A stretch of DNA of 64,000 nt from Lingula anatina (lineage: Eukaryota; Animalia; Brachiopoda): NCBI GenBank assembly GCA_051362555.1, contig CM120640.1, positions 67,496,788 through 67,560,787 on the forward strand. The letters run 5' to 3'. The position numbers and the translations under genes were made by a program. The number at the start of each line of letters is the position of its first letter. Position 1 is the stretch's first letter. The notes under the pieces were generated by a model that saw only the letters and a program-made list of their open reading frames with translations, did no database searches and was not told the origin of the DNA. This document shows positions 1,856-64,000 of this stretch, in pieces.

Positions 1856-2335
1856 ATCCTGCCAAACCTTAAGTTGTTAATGACCGTTTGCGCAAGTAAA
1901 TGATCATTTCCAAATCTGTTCTTCAATATTTCCTGTGCCTTTGTATAGCAATTGAGGCCACCAATGAGAAAGCGTTAAACCAGACCAGATGTGAAGTGCA
2001 GCAATCGAGACAATTTCATGGAATGGTCACTGACTTTACTTTCAATTATCTCATTAAAAACCACAATGAAAGAATAATGATCAATCTCAGCTCTTGGAAT
2101 GGATAATATATTTAATATTTGATGGTCTACAGAACTTCCCCTTTGTGTTTTATTATAACCAGCACCTTTCAAGAATGACAAACCTAGTTTTACAGATTTG
2201 ATAAAATTCTGTTCAATGGCCTTATAACAGTGTTCACTCTCGCCCAAGTCATTTTTGTTGACAAGTTCTGCCTGATGTTTAAAACATTGAGTAATACCTC
2301 TATGTCTTTCCCAAAATTTAAACAAACATGAAGCC
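1856..2335 (-). mobile_element. Degenerate BEL/Pao LTR-retrotransposon gag fragment (partial second copy about 2704-3050)
   Basis: Minus-strand translation across frameshifts: SIPRAEID...FIVVFNEIIESKVSDHSMKLSRLLHFTSG...LIGG...YTKAQEILKNRFGNDHLLAQTVINNL. This resembles the Pao gag (DUF1759-like) pattern as I recall it. Confidence 0.65.
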
Positions 2336-3419
2336 TTTCTTTATGCCATAAGTTTTTGTATGCACAAAATGCTATAAACTGGTTCTCCTCTAATGAGATG
2401 GCAGCGAACCCTGAAAAATTTCAAGCTATTTTTATTGGCAAAACATGAGTCAACCACAGTAATGAGCAACTATCTTTCACTGGAAAATTGGTGAAAACAG
2501 AACCTTGGGTTAAGCTCCTTGGGATTTACTTTGACTCAAGACTGACTTTCAACAAACACATCTCAGAATTATGTTCTAAAACAGCATGTCAATTAAATAC
2601 TCTGAAAAGGCTTTCAGCTCATCTAGATGTCCCCAGTCGGCTTGCCATTTTCAGGCACTTCACATTATCAAAATTTAATTATTGCCCGTTAGTATGGCAC
2701 TTTTGAAGTGCAGCAATCGAGACATTTTCATGGAATGGTCACTGACTTTACTTTCAATTATCTCATCAAAAACCACAATGAAAGAATAATAATCAATCTC
2801 AGCTCTTGGAATGGATAATATATTTAATATTTGATGGTCTACAGAACTTCCCCTTTGTGTTTTATTATAACCAGCACCTTTCAAGAATGACAAACCTAGT
2901 TTTACAGATTTGATAAAATTCTGTTCAATGGCCTTATAACAATGTTCACTCTCGTCCAAGTCATTTTTGTTGACAAATTCTGCCTGATGTTTAAAACACT
3001 GAGGAATACCTCTATGTATGTCTTTCCCAAAATTTAAACAAACATGAAGCCTCTCTTAATGCCATAAGTCTTTGTATGCACAAAATGCTATAAACTGGTT
3101 CTCCTCAAATGAGATGGCAGTGAACCCTGAAAAATTTCAAGCTATTTTTATTGGCAAAACATGAGTCGACCACAGTAATGAGCAACTATCTTTCAATGGA
3201 AAATTGCTGAAAACAGAACCTTGGGTCAAGCTCCTTGGGATTTACTTTGACTCAAGACTGACTTTCAACAAACACATCTCAGAATTATGTTCTAAAACAG
3301 CATGTCAATTAAATACTCTGAAAAGGCTTTCAGCTCATCTAGATGTCCCCAGTCGGCTTGCCATTTTCAGGCACTTTACATTATCAAACTTTAATTATTG
3401 TCCGTTAGTATGGCACTTT
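1992..3419 (+). repeat. Tandem duplication of about 712 bp (1992-2703 / 2704-3419) joining gag and LINE fragments
   Basis: TGAAGTGCAGCAATCGAGACA...GTATGGCACTTT occurs twice, with scattered substitutions and small indels such as an extra TATG near 3015. Confidence 0.95.
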
Positions 3420-4235
3420 TGTGGTGAGGGAAATATGAAAAAATCAGAAAAGATACAGGAAAGGGGTCTAAGATTTGTCTACGACAACCACACAAGCAGT
3501 TACGATGAGCTTTTAAATATGTCAGGCCTCAACACTCTGCACTTACAACAGGCTACGTATGCTTGCACTTGAGGTTTACAAAGCTATACATGGACTTGCA
3601 CCTTCCTACATCTCCGACCTTTTCCAGGAAAGAATAACAAGCTACAAACTTAGAGGAGAAAAGACTCTAAATATACCCAGATTTAATACAATGACATACG
3701 GCAAAAAATCCTTATCATATCTTGGGCCAAAAATATGGAATGATCTCTCAAATGACTTAAAGCAAAGCATCAATTCAAATGAGTTTAAATCACTTTTAAG
3801 GCTTTGGGAAGGACCCAAATGCATTGTAGCCTGTGTAACCTATATGCTTTTAGTGAAACTGTGTAATAATATGAAATATTTATATTATTTTGTATATCTG
3901 TACCAGTGAGCATTTGTATGTAGAATTGTCTGTTTTTCACAATTGATCTAAGTATAGCATTTTGCACATTTCCCATAGAAAGATTTTTTTTTCAATTATT
4001 ATCTTAATAGATTACATGTGTTTCTGGTATACTCTTTGTAGAATGTTCTTCATATGTTTTGTATACGCTTTGTAGAAAGATTTTCCTTTTAATATCTTAC
4101 TAGACTTCATGTGTAAATATTGCATTATTGTAGATATGTTTTTGTCCTTACCCAGTCGGCGAATAGCCGTAAAGCTAATGTTTCCTTTCAATTTATACCC
4201 GACATGAAATAAAATTCATTGTATTGTATTGTATA
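3078..4235 (+). mobile_element. 5'-truncated CR1/L2-group LINE (RT C-terminus, 3' UTR, tail); partial copy at about 2360-2703
   Basis: NWFSSNEMAVNPEKFQ, KLLGIYFDSRLTFNKHISELC, NYCPLVWHFC, YGKKSLSYLGPKIWNDL, with stops and frameshifts. Ends in AATAAA followed by (ATTGT)n at about 4208-4233. Confidence 0.85.
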
Positions 4236-5769: not shown

Positions 5770-18409
<12,640 letters not shown>

Positions 18410-27411: not shown

Positions 27412-28083
27412 TTATTTGGATCGTGTGCCCCTTTTTCTAGATGTTGCACTTCTTATGGTAGGATCTTTAAATTTTGAATCGATCACCCGTGAAATGCCAG
27501 CATTTTTACTGGGTTTATCATCTGCACTGTTAAGAATTTCTTGCAGAAATGTTATATAGTTAATTGCACATCTCAAAGTGTCAACCTTGCTGACACGTTT
27601 TTCCTTGTTCTTCAGTGGCAAGCAGCTTCTAAGTTGAAAATAACCATCATTAACATTGCGGACGCGATCTCGCTCCCGTTCGTTCCTTCTGCGGATCAAA
27701 CTGCTTTCATAAGGATCTCCTCCATTGAGAGACGGAAGAGGGACTAAAGCTTTTGGGGAAAAGGGATCATTTGGTTTATGTGGGTCGAAATTCAATGCAA
27801 ATCTTGCGGAATGGTGGTCCTGTGCTTCTCTAGTGTTTGTGTCTGCAGGAATGCCACCACTGGATTGGTTACTGTCAGAGCAGCTCGTGCGCGGATATCG
27901 TGACATGGGGGTGGAGTAGGCGTGGCTGAAGATCGGGCATGCTGGCTCGCTGTGATTGGTCCAGAAACTATCAGACGTGAAGTCAGGAGAGAGTTGTTCG
28001 CCGGATCCGCACGATGATGAGGGGATTAGTGAATCAAGATCGAAGATGGTGTTGAAATCGAGGTGAATGGAATCGTGATCCAT
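27412..28083 (-). CDS. Achaete-scute-family bHLH transcription factor (ASCb / ASCL3-5-like), single coding exon
   Basis: SLIRRRNERERDRVRNVNDGYFQLRSCLPLKNKEKRVSKVDTLRCAINYITFLQEIL; 223 aa. Confidence 0.9.
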   Translation of the reverse strand: MDHDSIHLDFNTIFDLDSLIPSSSCGSGEQLSPDFTSDSFWTNHSEPACPIFSHAYSTPMSRYPRTSCSDSNQSSGGIPADTNTREAQDHHSARFALNFDPHKPNDPFSPKALVPLPSLNGGDPYESSLIRRRNERERDRVRNVNDGYFQLRSCLPLKNKEKRVSKVDTLRCAINYITFLQEILNSADDKPSKNAGISRVIDSKFKDPTIRSATSRKRGTRSK

Positions 28084-28096
28084 GCTGAGGTAGATT

Positions 28097-29398
28097 CTGC
28101 AAGATAAAGGTCACAGGTCAACAATTAAGATGTCCCTGCGTGAGCTCACAGAATGAAACATTTTCGTGCAGCTTGGCGTGCTATTTTCAAAGAAAATAAC
28201 TACTTGCGCGTAAGACAACTTGCCCAGTAGTGGCGTGTAAACCGATACTACTCAAATAAATAAAAATGAATCAATGATGACATTATTGCTAGGGTGACGA
28301 GGCTGAAACACGCTCATGGTAAGCATCTCTCTAAAAAATTAAAGCCCACATACAAAGGAACAAGAAAATCAGAACTGTTTACTTTAGAAGCGTGCAGCAG
28401 CAAAACCAGAATACAATTGGCGATCATTAAAATCTCATCCCACCACTGATACGTCGCTAATTGGCCCCAATGTTTGTAGCATTTTGTCAGGTGTGGCTCT
28501 AGGCACCTATCAAGCTTCAATGTGCTCGCAAGCCTCAATAGTAATGATGTGTTACGCAAATTAATTTTATCCAAACATATGAATCTAGGTGTTTCAGGTG
28601 CCGTACAAACTTAACTCCCGTTTTCCTCGTTAAACACCATATTTAATATTATCATTTGTCATTAATTTCTTTTAGTTGAAAAAAGATATTTTGCATACAC
28701 CCTTCATTTGCAATGCGAATTTACCTTGATTCTATGAAAACTTGAAACATTCCTTCAGAAAAACATTGATATTGCTATGTGACAGCTCTGTATCTGTAAC
28801 TGTTTCCGGGCCCCGATGTACAAAAAAAGACCATATATGCAAAGTGCAGTATTTTGCTAAAAACGACGCTGCTTTTAGGCAAAAACTGTTTATCTTTGGC
28901 GAAGCGTGCCCAGTTGTTTTATGTGGACTAATAAGATTTACTCAGACTAAATGTTTCAATGTAAACCAACATTGGACTTCCAATCTTTTAAGAAGATGGA
29001 CGCTGACCAAAGAAACAACTTGTTAAAATAAAAGTCTTTTTGGCAAAATAAATCATAACATTCAAGTTCCTATTAATTTTTTCATCATAGTACTGACTAG
29101 GGCACTATGCTGTTCGATATAGAAAATATCACAACACCATACACCAATTTGTTATTGTTTTAGAAAAAATGTGAACAAAGTAGGATTAAGATGTATTCAT
29201 AAGAAAATAAATTTAAAAAGATGCCCCTCGATCTACAGAAATAATACACACTCTTACCTGTCTAAATGCAATGCCCTTTCTTCAGTTTCTTAAATGTTGG
29301 ATCCTCTGTCGCTATTTTCTTCAACGCGTGGCAGCGGATGCGAGTCACACGCGGAGCGGCCTGCTACTCTCGTGCCGTGCAACAAGTCTCTATTTATA
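28097..29398 (-). promoter_or_regulatory. Inferred TATA promoter, non-coding exon 1 and 5'-UTR intron of the ASCL gene
   Basis: Minus-strand TATAAATA at 29398-29391. Donor CAG|GTAAGA with exon ending at 29258; acceptor TTTATCTTGCAG| 13 nt before the ATG; intron 29257-28097. Confidence 0.6.
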
Positions 29399-40425: not shown

Positions 40426-58325
<17,900 letters not shown>

Positions 58326-58354
58326 ATTCCTGCCTTAGGTGGTAGCTAGTCTAA

Positions 58355-58887
58355 GAGCGCATTCTCAACGAATTAAGCCAGGCTTTACAAACCCAGTGAC
58401 CTAAAAATTGCGGACGTACATGAAAGAAAAACCGCCTAATCTTTTAATAGTCTCTCCGCCTCTCACACGCCTCCCCACACGTCGTCCCTGCGGGGTACAG
58501 TAATTAAATCTCGGCTCCGAACATTAATATTTCTGTGAATATCTCTGGTGATATTATCTCCGTAGATAGTCGATTCATTGCTGCTCTACGGGCCAAATTA
58601 TTCCTTTTTCGTCTCTGTTTTCAAAGATAATAGAACAGAAGAGCTTTTTTCCTTCGATCGCCTTCAGCCGCCATGCTTTCTTCCCCACGAGGTTAACTGA
58701 TGAGCATGCGCACTTAATATTTCTCAGGTAGCTTCCGCATGGCGAATGGAGACGCGATTTAATTACTGTACCCCGCAGGGAGGTGGAGGGACTATTAAAA
58801 GATTAGGCGTTTTTTCTTTCATGTACGTCCGCCATTTTTAGGTCACCGGCTTTGTAAAGCCTGGCTTAATTCGTTGAGAATGCGCTC
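58355..58887. mobile_element. Long-TIR MITE (TAA TSD, PIF/Harbinger-like) 30 bp after the MSH2 stop
   Basis: TAA|GAGCGCATTCTCAACGAATTAAGCCAGGCTTTACAAA ... TTTGTAAAGCCTGGCTTAATTCGTTGAGAATGCGCTC|TAA. Inverted similarity extends about 130-160 bp. Confidence 0.9.
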
Positions 58888-60482
58888 TAAAACAATGTTT
58901 GACTGCCTTAATATGTTGAGCAAAAGTCTTAATTGTACTTACAGTGTTAAGACAGATGCTCGGATTTGCCATGCACTAGTACTTGCCTGTTATTCTACAC
59001 AAGTAAAAGTGTTGCATGAAGAAGGCTTTCTTGTACATTGCAGTTTGAAAAGACATTTAAAGATAATAGATTCAAACTTATTTTGGAAACTTAATTGCTT
59101 TAGAAACTCACATATTTTTGACACTAAGGCTTAAGTGAGAAACTTGTTATGCATATCAATGTTTGTACTACACATAAATGTACATACCTGTAGATAATTA
59201 GTATACATTGCTAATGCAGATATTATGACATTCACTTTAATGTTGAAATTAAGGATTCAAATGTTTATTTGTTGAGCATTAAATTGGCATGTTATTTGAT
59301 CTAGTTGTCTCCATGGCATATTGCTCAAATCTGGACATAATGCCTGCATCCTCGATTTTTTTTTATCAATCTCCTTATTGTTTCTGTCTTCATATATACT
59401 GTAAATGCCATTCAATGTAATGACTTGAATTTTTCATGTAACTTCCTTACTGCCCATTATGTAGTTCTCATACTGCACTTCATGTCAATCACTTGCCCTA
59501 TTTAACTTATTGCACAATACAATATGATACAAAATTATGGCCTTATTAGAGATTAAATAACGATCAACCCTTACTGCCAAGTCAAGCTAGCCCCTGTCAA
59601 AAGGGGTGTTCATTCCATTGATTTGCAAAGAAATCACACCTGATCTTGCTATAACAATAAATTCTGCGGTAGGTAAATGATTTGGAAGAATAAATATCAA
59701 AAAACGTGAAATCCAAGTCTGCACTAATTAATTCTGCATCTTTTTCAACAGTTGAAAATTTCCCTTAGAAATGGTTGCTCACATTCAAAACAAGGAAGTG
59801 ATTGTTCAAAGTTTACCCATTTAATATTTTTTTCCTGACGCAAACAAGTCACTTCCTATAAATAGAGGCAAGGCAATCTTTCACAAAAAGCATAAATGAA
59901 TAGTGTCTTTGCTTCTGTGTTAGATTAACCATCCTTGGGTTAGAGATTTAATTAATTAAATGGCTTCATTCTAAATTGATAGTATATGTAGTACGTAGAA
60001 AGCGGGAAGTGCCCAAGGTGCTCTGAAATTCAGAATACTATAGTTGAAAGTGGTTGATCCTCCCGTGAGGTTTCATAATCATATTGCGTTTTTTATTTTT
60101 TTATTTATTTATTTTTTTTTTGTGTGTTGTTTATAATTATTTATTCATTTTTGAGTGCAAATATTCTCAAATTACAAAGAAAGTCCTCCCAGGCTCGTAA
60201 TTCGTATTATAAATATTTCCACTAACCGTTAGGCAATCATTGATTACCCACCTAAAATACTTTACGAATTAAAAGCTATTTGATACTTTAGACCTGCTAC
60301 AAAATGTCAACTATGAGAAGAGGGAAATTTTCTGCGTGGGTTAATTTATCTGCGGGTTATTTAAAGCGTCGGTATTTCCCTCACGTGACCAAAGGTAGAG
60401 CTGCTATAGGTGTACAATTTTTGATATCGGTGCACGCCCCGTCAAAACCTCGAGAGATCCAGTGCTACCGAAAATTTAGAAG

Positions 60483-61547
60483 ATGTCTCTGTTGTGGCGA
60501 TTCGTGGCTTGTATAAAGGAGGTAAGGGCACTTGGTCGCACACTGTGATTCAGATGATATAGACAGTTTAGACAAGAGCGGGTCAACTTCGCTTTATCTT
60601 TGTTTACACCTCGCAAACTTCACATAGCGGATAGTTGTTTCAAACTCCTCTGTACAAACAAATGAAACTACAAGCTGTAGATTATAAATCTGGCCACCCT
60701 TAGACATCGCCTTTATGGGGACTGCCGCTGTCTTAAAAAAGGCCATGATCAATGAGATACAACGAAAGGCTTTTAAACTGCCTTATTGATTTATTTATCT
60801 ATTTGTTTTCTCTCTCTCTCTCTCTCTCTCTCTGTGAGCGCTTCAGGTAAGTAACGACAACTATTTAATATTTTTGCATGCTAAAATGTAGTGGATCTTC
60901 GTTGAATTACTTAAGATTTAAACTTAATATAAATACTTAATATAAGAAACTTTATATAAATACTTCGTGTTCTACTTATTAGTCTTGTCGCTGTTCCATT
61001 ATATAAAAGCCTTTTATTAAAATCCTGCCACGTTTAATCCGCAACTGTAACCTATGTGTCTTGTGGTGCAGGTCGAAAAAGTTAACATTGTTTTTTTTAT
61101 TATATTGATGGCTTGCATACATCGGTTAGTGTTTAAGGCTGCTTGCAACCGAAAAATGTAGTACAATGGACGGATTGTTTGCGCATCTTGTTTGTGTTGT
61201 TTATTTGTCTGCGATAAGTATTTATAAATTCCAGCTGCCTGGGTTGTGCGAGATAATAAACCACAACTTAAAAGCAAAAGACGCCAATAAAACACAATAA
61301 ACTTAATGCAAAAAAAAAGTGAAGACTGAACGCCGTTTCTATACCAGTACATGTATCTTAAAGACCGATGTCAACTTCATCTAAATAATCCTGTCAACAT
61401 GCATGCAGTGGCGGATTTAGGGAAGTGTCAGGGGGTCATTACCCCTTTCGATTTCTAAAAATACCCCACAAATGGTCCCCTCTTGATAATAGAATTTTGA
61501 CTAGTTGAATCATAGTTCTAAACCGTACCAAATGGCACCGTACGCAC

Positions 61548-61584
<37 letters not shown>

Positions 61585-64000
61585 CGGGGGCCCTCCAGCG
61601 CTAAGGTGGTGGGGGGAGGTGTCGGCTTCGTATCCACGGACCCCCTTCAAAAATCCTGGATCCACCCCTGGTATCCAAATGTATCCAAACGGCTTTTCAA
61701 CCTGCACTGAACTTCATTACGCGACGAACGAAAACTGCAATCCATTACCATATCTCGCAAATGCAGCTTTTGCCAGTCATGTCATTCTCATCAAACACAT
61801 AAAAAGATACTGATAAGAATAAAATTAATAAGTAAAAACAAATAAATAAAGAATAAATAAGAAAATAAATAATGATAACAGTATAAATAAATAATCAATA
61901 AACGAAAGAAACGAAGAAGAAAGATTATCGACTGCCTACCTTCACGTACCACTATAGCCTTATTTAGAAAATAGCAGCGCATGTTAATTGCCATCTGTTT
62001 TTTATTTTAGTTCTTCTATCCAACTGTTAAAGAACCCCCAGCTTACACAACTTTAAATCTGGTTGGTGTCAGCGACAATGTGTTCTGTTTCTCCGAAGAT
62101 CAGAAGAAATTGAAGGACCTGAATGTTGAAAAAATTAAAGATGGCCAACTCCCCTCAAATCACGCAAAGGTAAGTATGTAGTAAATGATTTCAATGAGCT
62201 TATATTTGTGGAGACGCTAAAATAGTCCCGTTTTCCTGCGTTAGCGTTATTATTGTTTGAAAATGAAAAATATGGAATTTTTTCGTTTATTACAGATTGT
62301 TGTTTTAGGAGATCCTAGAGTTGGAAAAACTAGCCTGTTAAGGCGTCTTCTGGGTCAAAGCTTTCGAGATGACGAGCAAAGCACTCCTGGCTTGGACACG
62401 AAGTATGTCGAGGGGAAAAAGGCATATGAATCCTTCGAAGAGGTTGACCGCGGTGATTCAATCGACAGAGACACACAGGAAAGTGCCTCGTACTTGGTTG
62501 CCAAAGAGCTGATCCCACATCCTCCTGTCTGTGCAACAGCCAGTGGTTTGAAACATATCAATGCACAGGATTTTGGAGCGTGTTATGTGATAGCACATGT
62601 TTCAAAGCTGTTGGTCATGACAATTCCTTCTGTTGTCCTTTTTTCACTGCACAATGTCTTGGGGTTTCCACTGATATTTGGTTGCGTTTGGTTTTCGGCC
62701 TGGGTCATTGGCTTGCTCGACACTAAAAATAATTTCGTTAGTGTCATTGATGCAAGCGCCGTTGGCATGACAATGGTCAACTTTTTGATTCGCAAAAATC
62801 CTCTTGCTGAATGCTTTGATTGGTTGAAAGATACAGACATCTGCTGCATAAGAGGCAATTTTTCTTCATCACATTGGGTGTTTCTTTGTGATATAATTCA
62901 CCGGGTTGGATATATTACTCCGGAACACTTCTTTTCCGGAATAATTTGTAGTTTTGGTCATTTGTTGGTGGTTGTACTGGCCGGTTGGACCATTGGTTTC
63001 GTTCTTGGATTGCGGATTCGAAAGTGGATCGTTTTCCCGGCATTCTTAATAATGCTGCCTTCCGTAAAATCCAACGAACAACATTTCAGCGTTACGCATT
63101 TAGCGTTTTTGGCAGTGCATTTTTCTTATGCCCTTGGAGTTAGTATTGGGGTCGGTATTACGTCCAGAAACTACATGCTGTCAAAAACGAACGCTCTGAA
63201 AGAGTTCCCAAGAAACATGGCACTTCATGTAGTCACTTTGACTCTTTTCATTTTTCTGATGCCTATTGCTCTGAGTGAGTACAAAGATCACTTTTTCTGT
63301 CAAGTTACACTGTCTGGGGGCTTTGGGATAGTATTTGGATTAATGTATGCTCTAGCCAGTCACAGCTGCCGAAACCTAAAAAGTTTCTTGTTTCAAAATT
63401 CAGGAATATACAGCTTTTTTATCGGTGTAATGGCTTGTCCTCTTTACTTGCATTCCATTGGCTGGACAGTTGTGGATCTATCTGTTCTGGCTGAGCAGCC
63501 ATTTTGGCTTCGTTTGATTTTTGTGATCTCTCCACTCATAAGACTTGGTATTGAAATCCGGAGAAAGGTTGTGCTCAAGGCGTTTGATGCGTGCGGAGTT
63601 GATTTGATTTCTATCTCTCGACATTTGTCCAGAATAAACCTCAATCTTGAGTCTTTGCCCACTTTCTTAAATATTTTAGATTTTGCTGGTCAGGAGAAAT
63701 ATCGTTCGTGGCATCATCTTTTTATGTCCAAACATGGCATTTATTTGTTGGTTTTCAATTTAGCTCATGTGGTCGAATCCCCGGAAGCCCCTGAACGTCA
63801 GCTGAAAGATCTTGAGTACTGGCTTAACTCCATTTTTGCGCACACCTCTCATCCAGATTCTGTTATCCTCCTGGTCGGTACACACGCCAGAAGTTTTGAT
63901 AAATCTCTAGAAAACCGGGTTAAAGAGTTTGAAACAATACTGAAACGTAGAATTTTATCAAACCCAAAGTACGAAAAGAGGCTGTACACATGTGATTTTC
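60483..64000 (+). CDS. Roco-family GTPase with an N-terminal Roc domain interrupted by a multi-pass membrane insert; truncated by the window edge
   Basis: Inferred exons 60483-60521 (MSLLWRFVACIKE|gtaagg; less certain), 62011-62169 and 62296->64000, all phase 0 and open. G1 GDPRVGKTS (62308), G2 STPG (62380), G3 ILDFAGQEKY (D at 63679), then HHLFMSKHGIYLLVFNL, YWLNSI and G4 LVGTH. Confidence 0.88.
61406..61669. mobile_element. Small non-autonomous DNA element (CAGTGGCGGAT...ATCCACCCCTG termini) in Roco intron 1; older relative at about 20144-20300
   Basis: Imperfect TIRs and an internal poly-A run; no TSD seen. Confidence 0.55.

Follow-up and report, generated by a model that had tools for sequence, protein, structure and literature searches.

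The end of a 64,000-nucleotide stretch of Lingula anatina DNA (the window) contains a gene for a Roco protein whose Roc GTPase domain is interrupted by a long hydrophobic insert. This gene is real, and it is transcribed with its insert. The insert is predicted to be a polytopic membrane bundle set into the interswitch. We propose that the protein may be a membrane receptor made of one chain, with the bundle as its putative sensor, Roc-COR as the switch and a Death domain as the part that would signal, a reading to which we give about even weight. The family of membrane-insert Rocos is apparently undescribed.

The gene lies on the forward strand. Its large third coding exon (62296-64000) comprises the N-terminal half of Roc, the insert and the C-terminal half of Roc, and runs off the window; it is identified by translation, Pfam and RNA. 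A preliminary description of this DNA had reported a single stop-free exon, and this holds over 62296-63999, which translates into 568 residues with zero stops. The G2 threonine is residue 30 of the exon translation and the G3 aspartate residue 462, giving the spacing of 432 codons reported earlier, and all the Roc motifs and hydrophobic peptides that had been quoted are found in the translation. No stop-free sequence was obtained in 20,000 base shuffles of the G2-G3 stretch. Pfam detected Roc (E 2.5e-18) and Ras in the exon, each matched in two stretches, and a Pfam scan of the insert by itself gave zero family matches.

The P-loop exon opens after an AG acceptor, and the lysine of KIVVLG is encoded by the exon upstream. 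This second coding exon (62011-62169, 53 codons) provides the linker to the lysine before strand β1, and is placed by tblastn, its splice ends and RNA depth. It is separated from exon 3 by a 126-nt GT-AG intron (62170-62295), recognized by its sequence and by zero RNA depth in the bin 62184-62254. Coding exon 1 (60483-60521), with the ATG and 13 codons, was located by tblastn of the protein P0002 (see below) and by its GT donor, and 10 reads of RNA run X7 pass from exon 2 into its sequence. The boundaries of all three exons carry GT/AG. Exon 1 encodes the start of a predicted N-terminal amphipathic helix, with a hydrophobic moment of 0.49, a value reached in 382 of 10,000 shuffles. Intron 1 contains a consensus splice donor CAG/GTAAGT at 60847 (60800-60852, forward strand), right after a CT microsatellite, a possible alternative first exon. 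A MITE-like inverted repeat (58349-58893), with 114-nt arms that are 93% complementary and 317 nt apart, lies 1.6 kb before the ATG of the Roco gene.

Four of the nine listed RNA runs were mapped (X7, X9, X1 and X4). The 112 reads from X7 covered 28 of 30 bins, both empty bins being intronic; X9 gave 22 reads, in the 3′ part only, X1 gave six and X4 none. X7 depth covers the whole insert and, among the joints listed, none skips it. Evidently the insert is kept in RNA, with low sensitivity to minor insert-skipping isoforms because the joint of the true 126-nt intron is also absent from the listing. Most of the X7 reads (93 of 112) are 95-99% alike to the window, and come from other alleles or a close paralogue; within the 64-kb window no Roco paralogue was found. 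Among the read differences listed (40 of 51), those in the C-terminal half of Roc are six synonymous and no non-synonymous, those in exon 2 are synonymous in five of five cases, and those in the membrane part are six synonymous and six non-synonymous (P 0.037 versus site counts).

The window has some further features. A single-frame bHLH gene is found at 27415-28110 on the reverse strand (Pfam HLH, E 4.8e-18), with achaete-scute homolog 1 as its closest solved relative. Short exon-like peptides at ~17170-17600 on the forward strand, which we take to resemble cytosolic alpha-mannosidase MAN2C1, received no support for that label from Pfam and PDB scans of these frames. Two overlapping, frameshifted forward-strand frames at 3165-3906 resemble the C terminus encoded by a LINE reverse transcriptase ORF, and have no Pfam match. 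Repeats at 541-990, 47628-48657, 55948-56413 and 1992-3316 comprise tandem arrays (45, 146 and 31 nt) together with one duplication of ~700 nt whose copies are nearly identical.

G5, COR and the Death domain lie beyond the end of the window, and are seen in P0002, a 1170-residue, 99% identical full-length record that was the sole protein matched by a search with the insert. Of the 568 residues that P0002 and the window can be compared over, 7 are different, so the record comes from another allele or assembly. The COR domain whose presence downstream of Roc had been left to be sought is indeed there: residues 505-966 of P0002 are COR by hhalign (probability 99.9) to A2, a set of 38 rows combining search proteins, loci and cluster members, of which 16 remain at 90% identity, many being near-copies. 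Foldseek matched it to the COR structure 3dpt (E 5.6e-7). P0002 itself has no listed match to Pfam COR-A, which is matched at E<=0.5 in 36 of the 38 A2 rows. The Death domain (PF00531, residues 1076-1156, E 3.8e-6) is known from P0002 only. No LRR, ankyrin or other repeat family and no kinase appears in the Pfam listing for P0002, and with only 66 residues ahead of the G domain (β1) the protein lacks the LRR, ankyrin and kinase parts of other Rocos. A GES scan found no certain membrane segment outside the insert.

Judged by its sequence, the interrupted domain is a Roc-type G domain with intact G1, G2 and G3, a feature of Roco membership. The G1 P-loop GDPRVGKT is at 62308-62331, and GDxxVGKTS is present in 38 of 38 A2 rows. 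The G2 threonine of switch I, which is invariant in A2, and the putative strand β2 occupy 62383-62412; β2 is placed by reference to no-insert Rocos, and is not resolved in the P0002 model. The C-terminal half (63658-64000) carries β3, G3 (DFAG, 63679-63690), switch II and G4 (THAR, 63880-63891). The distance from G1 to G3 is 457 residues in the Lingula protein, compared with ~50 in no-insert Rocos. The aspartate of the G4 motif (N/T)(K/H)xD is absent from the Lingula protein, and there is no D in any of the 37 A2 rows having G4, so that guanine specificity is uncertain. It is kept in P0030, and is missing too in two bacterial LRR-Rocos; thus it is not Roco-defining.

Do the two halves form a single domain? 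The preliminary description had taken them to be parts of one G domain, and in AlphaFold models of two family members they close into one. The P0002 model (calculated with alignment A1) has a mean pLDDT of 45.6, with values of ~50-85 for the G domain and COR, and an all-helical insert below 50. Residues 60-663 of this model aligned to LRRK2 Roc 1330-1511 over 163 residues (rmsd 3.3, Z 16.0), and also to 160 of 173 residues of Rab33. Residues 30-576 of the model of the relative P0021 aligned to LRRK2 1330-1528 with Z 15.9. This single G domain is a predicted one, and the models may be biased towards GTPase folds that are already known.

Comparison with no-insert Rocos puts the insertion site behind the strand that follows G2 and ahead of the one that leads into G3. 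We infer that the insert sits at the β2-β3 tip of the interswitch, with helix-like segments leading out and back. The outgoing stalk, a predicted helix and linker from the tip to the bundle (62413-62598), corresponds to a low-pLDDT AlphaFold helix at residues 122-138 of P0002, and a similar helix-like segment is found in relatives. The predicted bundle of 8-10 helices (62599-63558) is delineated by hydropathy scans and by the all-helical AlphaFold model with pLDDT <50. It includes a 54-residue loop (62791-62952) with five cysteines and the only N-glycosylation sequon of the insert loops, predicted to be on the outer or luminal side. A basic stretch after the last helix and the return stalk to β3 (63559-63657) are suggested by the AlphaFold model, the topology scan and relatives.

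The proposal that the insert is a polytopic integral-membrane domain was examined using the Kyte-Doolittle and GES hydropathy scales and positive-inside counts. Its central part stands, in that the insert is polytopic by hydropathy (8-10 segments) and lies on the interswitch; the helix number and topology are predictions from scale-based scans. There are six hydrophobic segments at Kyte-Doolittle >=1.6 and nine at >=1.3, and the GES scan gave seven certain and two putative segments. In all 19 hydrophobic-insert rows scanned the insert has 5-12 certain segments, with none outside it in 18 of the 19, and the gap is free of them in six of six control rows. In 12 of 19 rows the topology that best obeys the positive-inside rule has an even helix count and a K/R-rich G-domain side; six of the 19, including the Lingula protein, have an odd count or are N-out, and one row is tied. 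Adding a tenth Lingula segment (469-487), found by Kyte-Doolittle only, to give a hand-chosen 10-helix topology results in a K+R ratio of 14:4 with both ends inside and the Cys/sequon loop outside. Our favored reading is therefore a predicted arrangement of 10 helices with both ends of the insert cytosolic. Across hydrophobic-insert members the predicted number of helices is about 8 to 12.

Only G-domain and Roc-COR matches were listed in fold searches with full models, and they carry no information on the fold of the insert, because the listings were filled by the G domain and the pLDDT of the insert is mostly <50. Family and profile searches found no homology of the insert to FeoB or GPCR, and an atlas search with the insert alone gave no usable match. 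One insert-search match among 1.84 billion representatives, P0095, was rejected as a 4342-residue tandem repeat matched by composition. DUF3177 was matched in 16 of 38 A2 rows, with a best E of 4e-4.

The architecture is not peculiar to Lingula. A search with residues 60-700 of P0002 returned 30 proteins, P0002 itself among them. In 24 of the other 29 the same site is occupied by a hydrophobic insert, with a G1-G3 gap of 389-547 residues and 5-8 strong hydrophobic segments each. Over all hydrophobic-insert rows the gap is 370-550 residues. Two of the 24 are named, from the corals Montipora capricornis and Stylophora pistillata, and are NCBI-annotated. Database entries for the family read 'uncharacterized' or 'cyclic GMP-binding protein', and because of these labels and the lack of a Pfam match to the insert, domain-based surveys would miss them. 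In the atlas P0011 adjoins a 52-member cluster, possibly its own, whose commonest phylum is Cnidaria. Nine of 27 metagenome loci were translated, giving four with a hydrophobic insert (one ending before G3), one with a soluble insert, two with little or no insert and two small GTPases. ENA-type family sequences end at an intron donor (two of two loci checked), and do not cover the C termini. In the two RefSeq coral members P0010 and P0011 a Death domain was absent by Pfam, their matches above the E 0.01 level being Roc, Ras and COR-A only. A profile search with A1 was dominated by LRR-Rocos and added no member.

Soluble inserts had been said to occur in invertebrate Rocos, and five of the search proteins have one at this same interswitch site, with a G1-G3 gap of 120-244 residues. 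The soluble-insert Rocos P0019, P0027, P0028, P0029, P0031 and L011:4866-6641 are largely low-complexity, with a gap of 120-257. This interswitch site is an insertion hot spot. In trees of the Roc-COR core, the Lingula protein and P0030 form long branches that fall outside the coral-type clade, and their order relative to the soluble-insert proteins is not settled by these trees. The hydrophobic-insert rows need two changes; a single origin (p-AU 0.49) is neither rejected nor shown. P0030, a divergent member that branches by itself, has about 12 predicted helices and keeps the G4 aspartate. The coral-type locus L002 has a frameshift at the start of COR (~2270-2340), from a pseudogene or an assembly error. 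Short-pattern scans found no matching locus in viral contigs and a single one in prokaryote genomes, an ordinary LRR-Roc with 50-residue-type G1-G3 spacing. The bacterial locus L028:1912-4923 (Candidatus Angelobacter) is LRR-Roc-COR with a TIR-like end, judged by eye, and no insert.

The insert evolves faster than Roc and COR, with a mean identity of 29% compared with 73% and 60% for the Roc halves and 69% for COR. Between L001 and L002 dN/dS is 0.77 for the insert and 0.25-0.40 for Roc, where the frameshifted L002 may be decaying; between L001 and L003 the values are 0.43 and 0.12-0.34. All insert indels between L001 and L002 are in frame. In metagenome-locus comparisons the segments retain more hydrophobicity than a simulation of neutral mutation predicts in four of four cases (P 0.026 to <0.001), and charge is excluded from the hydrophobic segments in three of four (P<0.01). 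The inserts of two coral subclades, P0010, P0030 and Lingula gave no convincing alignment above a local-shuffle null, and hhalign gave about 1% or less. In two of 11 alignment tests <=3 of 200 shuffles scored as high, and in one of these the reversed sequence came close to the same score. The main coral subclade by itself has >=85% identity at 38 of 271 insert columns, including R262, E380 and several glycines. These comparisons indicate that the insert is hypervariable, yet that its hydrophobic character is kept under selection. Since dN/dS never exceeds 1, the divergence can be accounted for equally well by relaxed constraint and by an arms race.

How might such a protein work? We read the bundle as input because the Lingula Roco has a switch and an effector and no repeat sensor, and because the bundle is the fast-evolving part. 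It would stand in for the LRR or ankyrin sensor of other Rocos. The bundle would move in response to a ligand, a membrane protein of a microbe or damage to the membrane, and through the two-helix stalk this movement would put tension on the strands that lie between switch I and switch II. The nucleotide state and the dimer-monomer state of Roc-COR would change in response, and Death domains would cluster at the membrane and recruit death-fold adaptors, with innate immunity or cell death as the outcome. In coral members that lack a terminal effector domain, a partner would pass on the signal. More broadly, we tentatively suggest, with somewhat less than even confidence, that these proteins are an undescribed animal class of single-chain receptor, with a hypervariable multi-pass membrane domain connected to its own GTPase through the interswitch, so that one polypeptide would combine a receptor with its G protein. 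The class would have diversified in corals, would occur in two or more further deep lineages of the Roc-COR tree, and would serve membrane-level immune or symbiont surveillance. These would be overlooked candidate membrane immune receptors in reef corals.

The bundle could instead be a passive membrane anchor or organelle-targeting module in an insertion-tolerant loop, which concentrates Roc-COR-Death on a membrane and carries no signal, much as LRRK2 is brought to membranes by Rab proteins. That only hydrophobic character is kept across subclades, and that the higher insert dN/dS is near neutral, would suit such a role. Moreover, soluble inserts of 120-260 residues sit at the same site, which therefore tolerates cargo that is perhaps uncoupled, and the available text on Ectocarpus Rocos describes one- or two-helix anchors (PMC3341825). 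Yet two helices would do for an anchor, not the 8-12 predicted here, while the G1-G3 gap stays at 370-550 residues, and the Lingula insert has a Cys-rich loop with a sequon on its predicted outer side. We consider this rather unlikely.

The preliminary description had offered a channel or transporter gated by the nucleotide state alongside a built-in receptor. In the former case the bundle would be an output, and nucleotide-dependent rearrangement of Roc-COR would open or assemble a pore, channel or transporter; one possible role is that of an effector of cell death. The bundle is attached directly to the interswitch, it is the only candidate output in P0010 and P0011, where Pfam lists nothing but Roc, Ras and COR-A above E 0.01, and the conserved columns of the main coral subclade might reflect such a function. 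Substrate-specific transporters usually retain their pore residues, however, and the channel is weakened by the failure of inserts of different subclades, P0010, P0030 and Lingula to align above the shuffle null; the predicted helix number varies from about 8 to 12, and the Lingula Roco already has a separate effector domain. We regard a pore as unlikely. Divergence combined with kept hydrophobicity appears to fit a variable sensor better than a conserved channel, and of the two proposals the built-in receptor probably fits better.

It is very improbable that the insert is helical and hydrophobic without spanning the bilayer, as a lipid-binding, lipid-droplet or monotopic domain would be: several segments are moderately hydrophobic (three of nine in Lingula below KD 1.6) and there is no confident model of the insert, but the proteins have 5-12 certain segments each, short loops and, in most rows, a positive-inside bias. 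An unspliced intron or chance T-rich open frame can practically be dismissed, since, for all that RNA depth is low and mainly from one run and the joint of the short intron is absent from the listing, depth is continuous over the insert while true introns are empty, none of the 20,000 shuffles was stop-free, insert indels are in frame, and 24 other proteins, two of them NCBI-annotated, share the layout.

A single-chain receptor of the kind that we favor can be compared with several known systems. The best sequence and fold matches are LRRK2, LRRK1 and the Chlorobium tepidum Roco (PDB 8fo9, 8e05, 6hlu, 3dpu), which have Roc followed by COR in common with the Lingula Roco. The latter differs in having no LRR, kinase or WD40, a predicted bundle inside Roc, and G4 without its aspartate. 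Characterized Rocos such as LRRK2 are soluble, and are recruited to membranes by partners. The order Roc-COR-Death is shared with DAPK1 and with invertebrate Roc-COR-Death proteins such as Mytilus P0031. DAPK1 has a kinase and ankyrin part, whereas P0002 has neither N-terminal kinase nor ankyrin repeats, and P0031 has a G1-G3 gap of 120 residues with no hydrophobic segment. In FeoB a G domain is coupled to a polytopic membrane domain, as predicted here. However, the N-terminal G domain of FeoB is uninterrupted and its transporter is conserved, while the Lingula G domain is split. GPCR and Gα offer an analogue of such coupling in separate chains, and the Arf interswitch toggle an analogue for coupling through the interswitch. 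The trigger of Roc switching is still debated, and a membrane domain built into the interswitch would be a direct test of whether input at β2-β3 controls the Roc-COR cycle.

In the available text of published work, GTP drives monomerization of the bacterial CtRoco (PMC11052575). A preprint proposed interswitch movement for LRRK2 ROC (10.1101/676627), and the accessible part of a later paper treats the extended form and large interswitch movement of isolated LRRK2 ROC as a likely artefact (PMC13102002). Roc-COR-TIR and Roc-COR-Death forms are listed in the available portions of anemone and Aplysia immune surveys (PMC5094078, PMC9334734). Our literature search, which covered the main text of mostly open-access papers, found no description of a polytopic insert within Roc. 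In brown algae, membrane-anchored Rocos and insertions within Roc are reported in the text available (PMC3341825, PMC11378527, PMC4104024). As far as these partial texts go, the Ectocarpus ROCOs are likewise candidate immune receptors, some with predicted transmembrane segments and some with Roc insertions; they differ in having one or two C-terminal membrane anchors after COR, and their Roc insertions are described as repeats or non-conserved sequence rather than membrane bundles (PMC3341825, PMC11378527). P0002, in contrast, has no certain transmembrane segment C-terminal to COR.

A parallel in design is offered by the AP-GTPase (Roc-COR) conflict and immune systems, whose layout, in the available part of the publication, is a fast-evolving sensor, AP-GTPase/COR and a variable effector (PMC8195603; Kaur et al. 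2021); that part makes no mention of a membrane-insert form. The N-terminal LRR or repeat sensor of this class is absent here, and a C-terminal effector is present in P0002 (Death) and absent in P0010 and P0011. Within the same scope, the two share a switch GTPase, COR, a variable C-terminal effector and a fast-evolving part, with the difference that the fast-evolving sensor of the AP-GTPase systems is an N-terminal LRR array, whereas in the Lingula Roco the corresponding part would be a membrane bundle inside the G domain.
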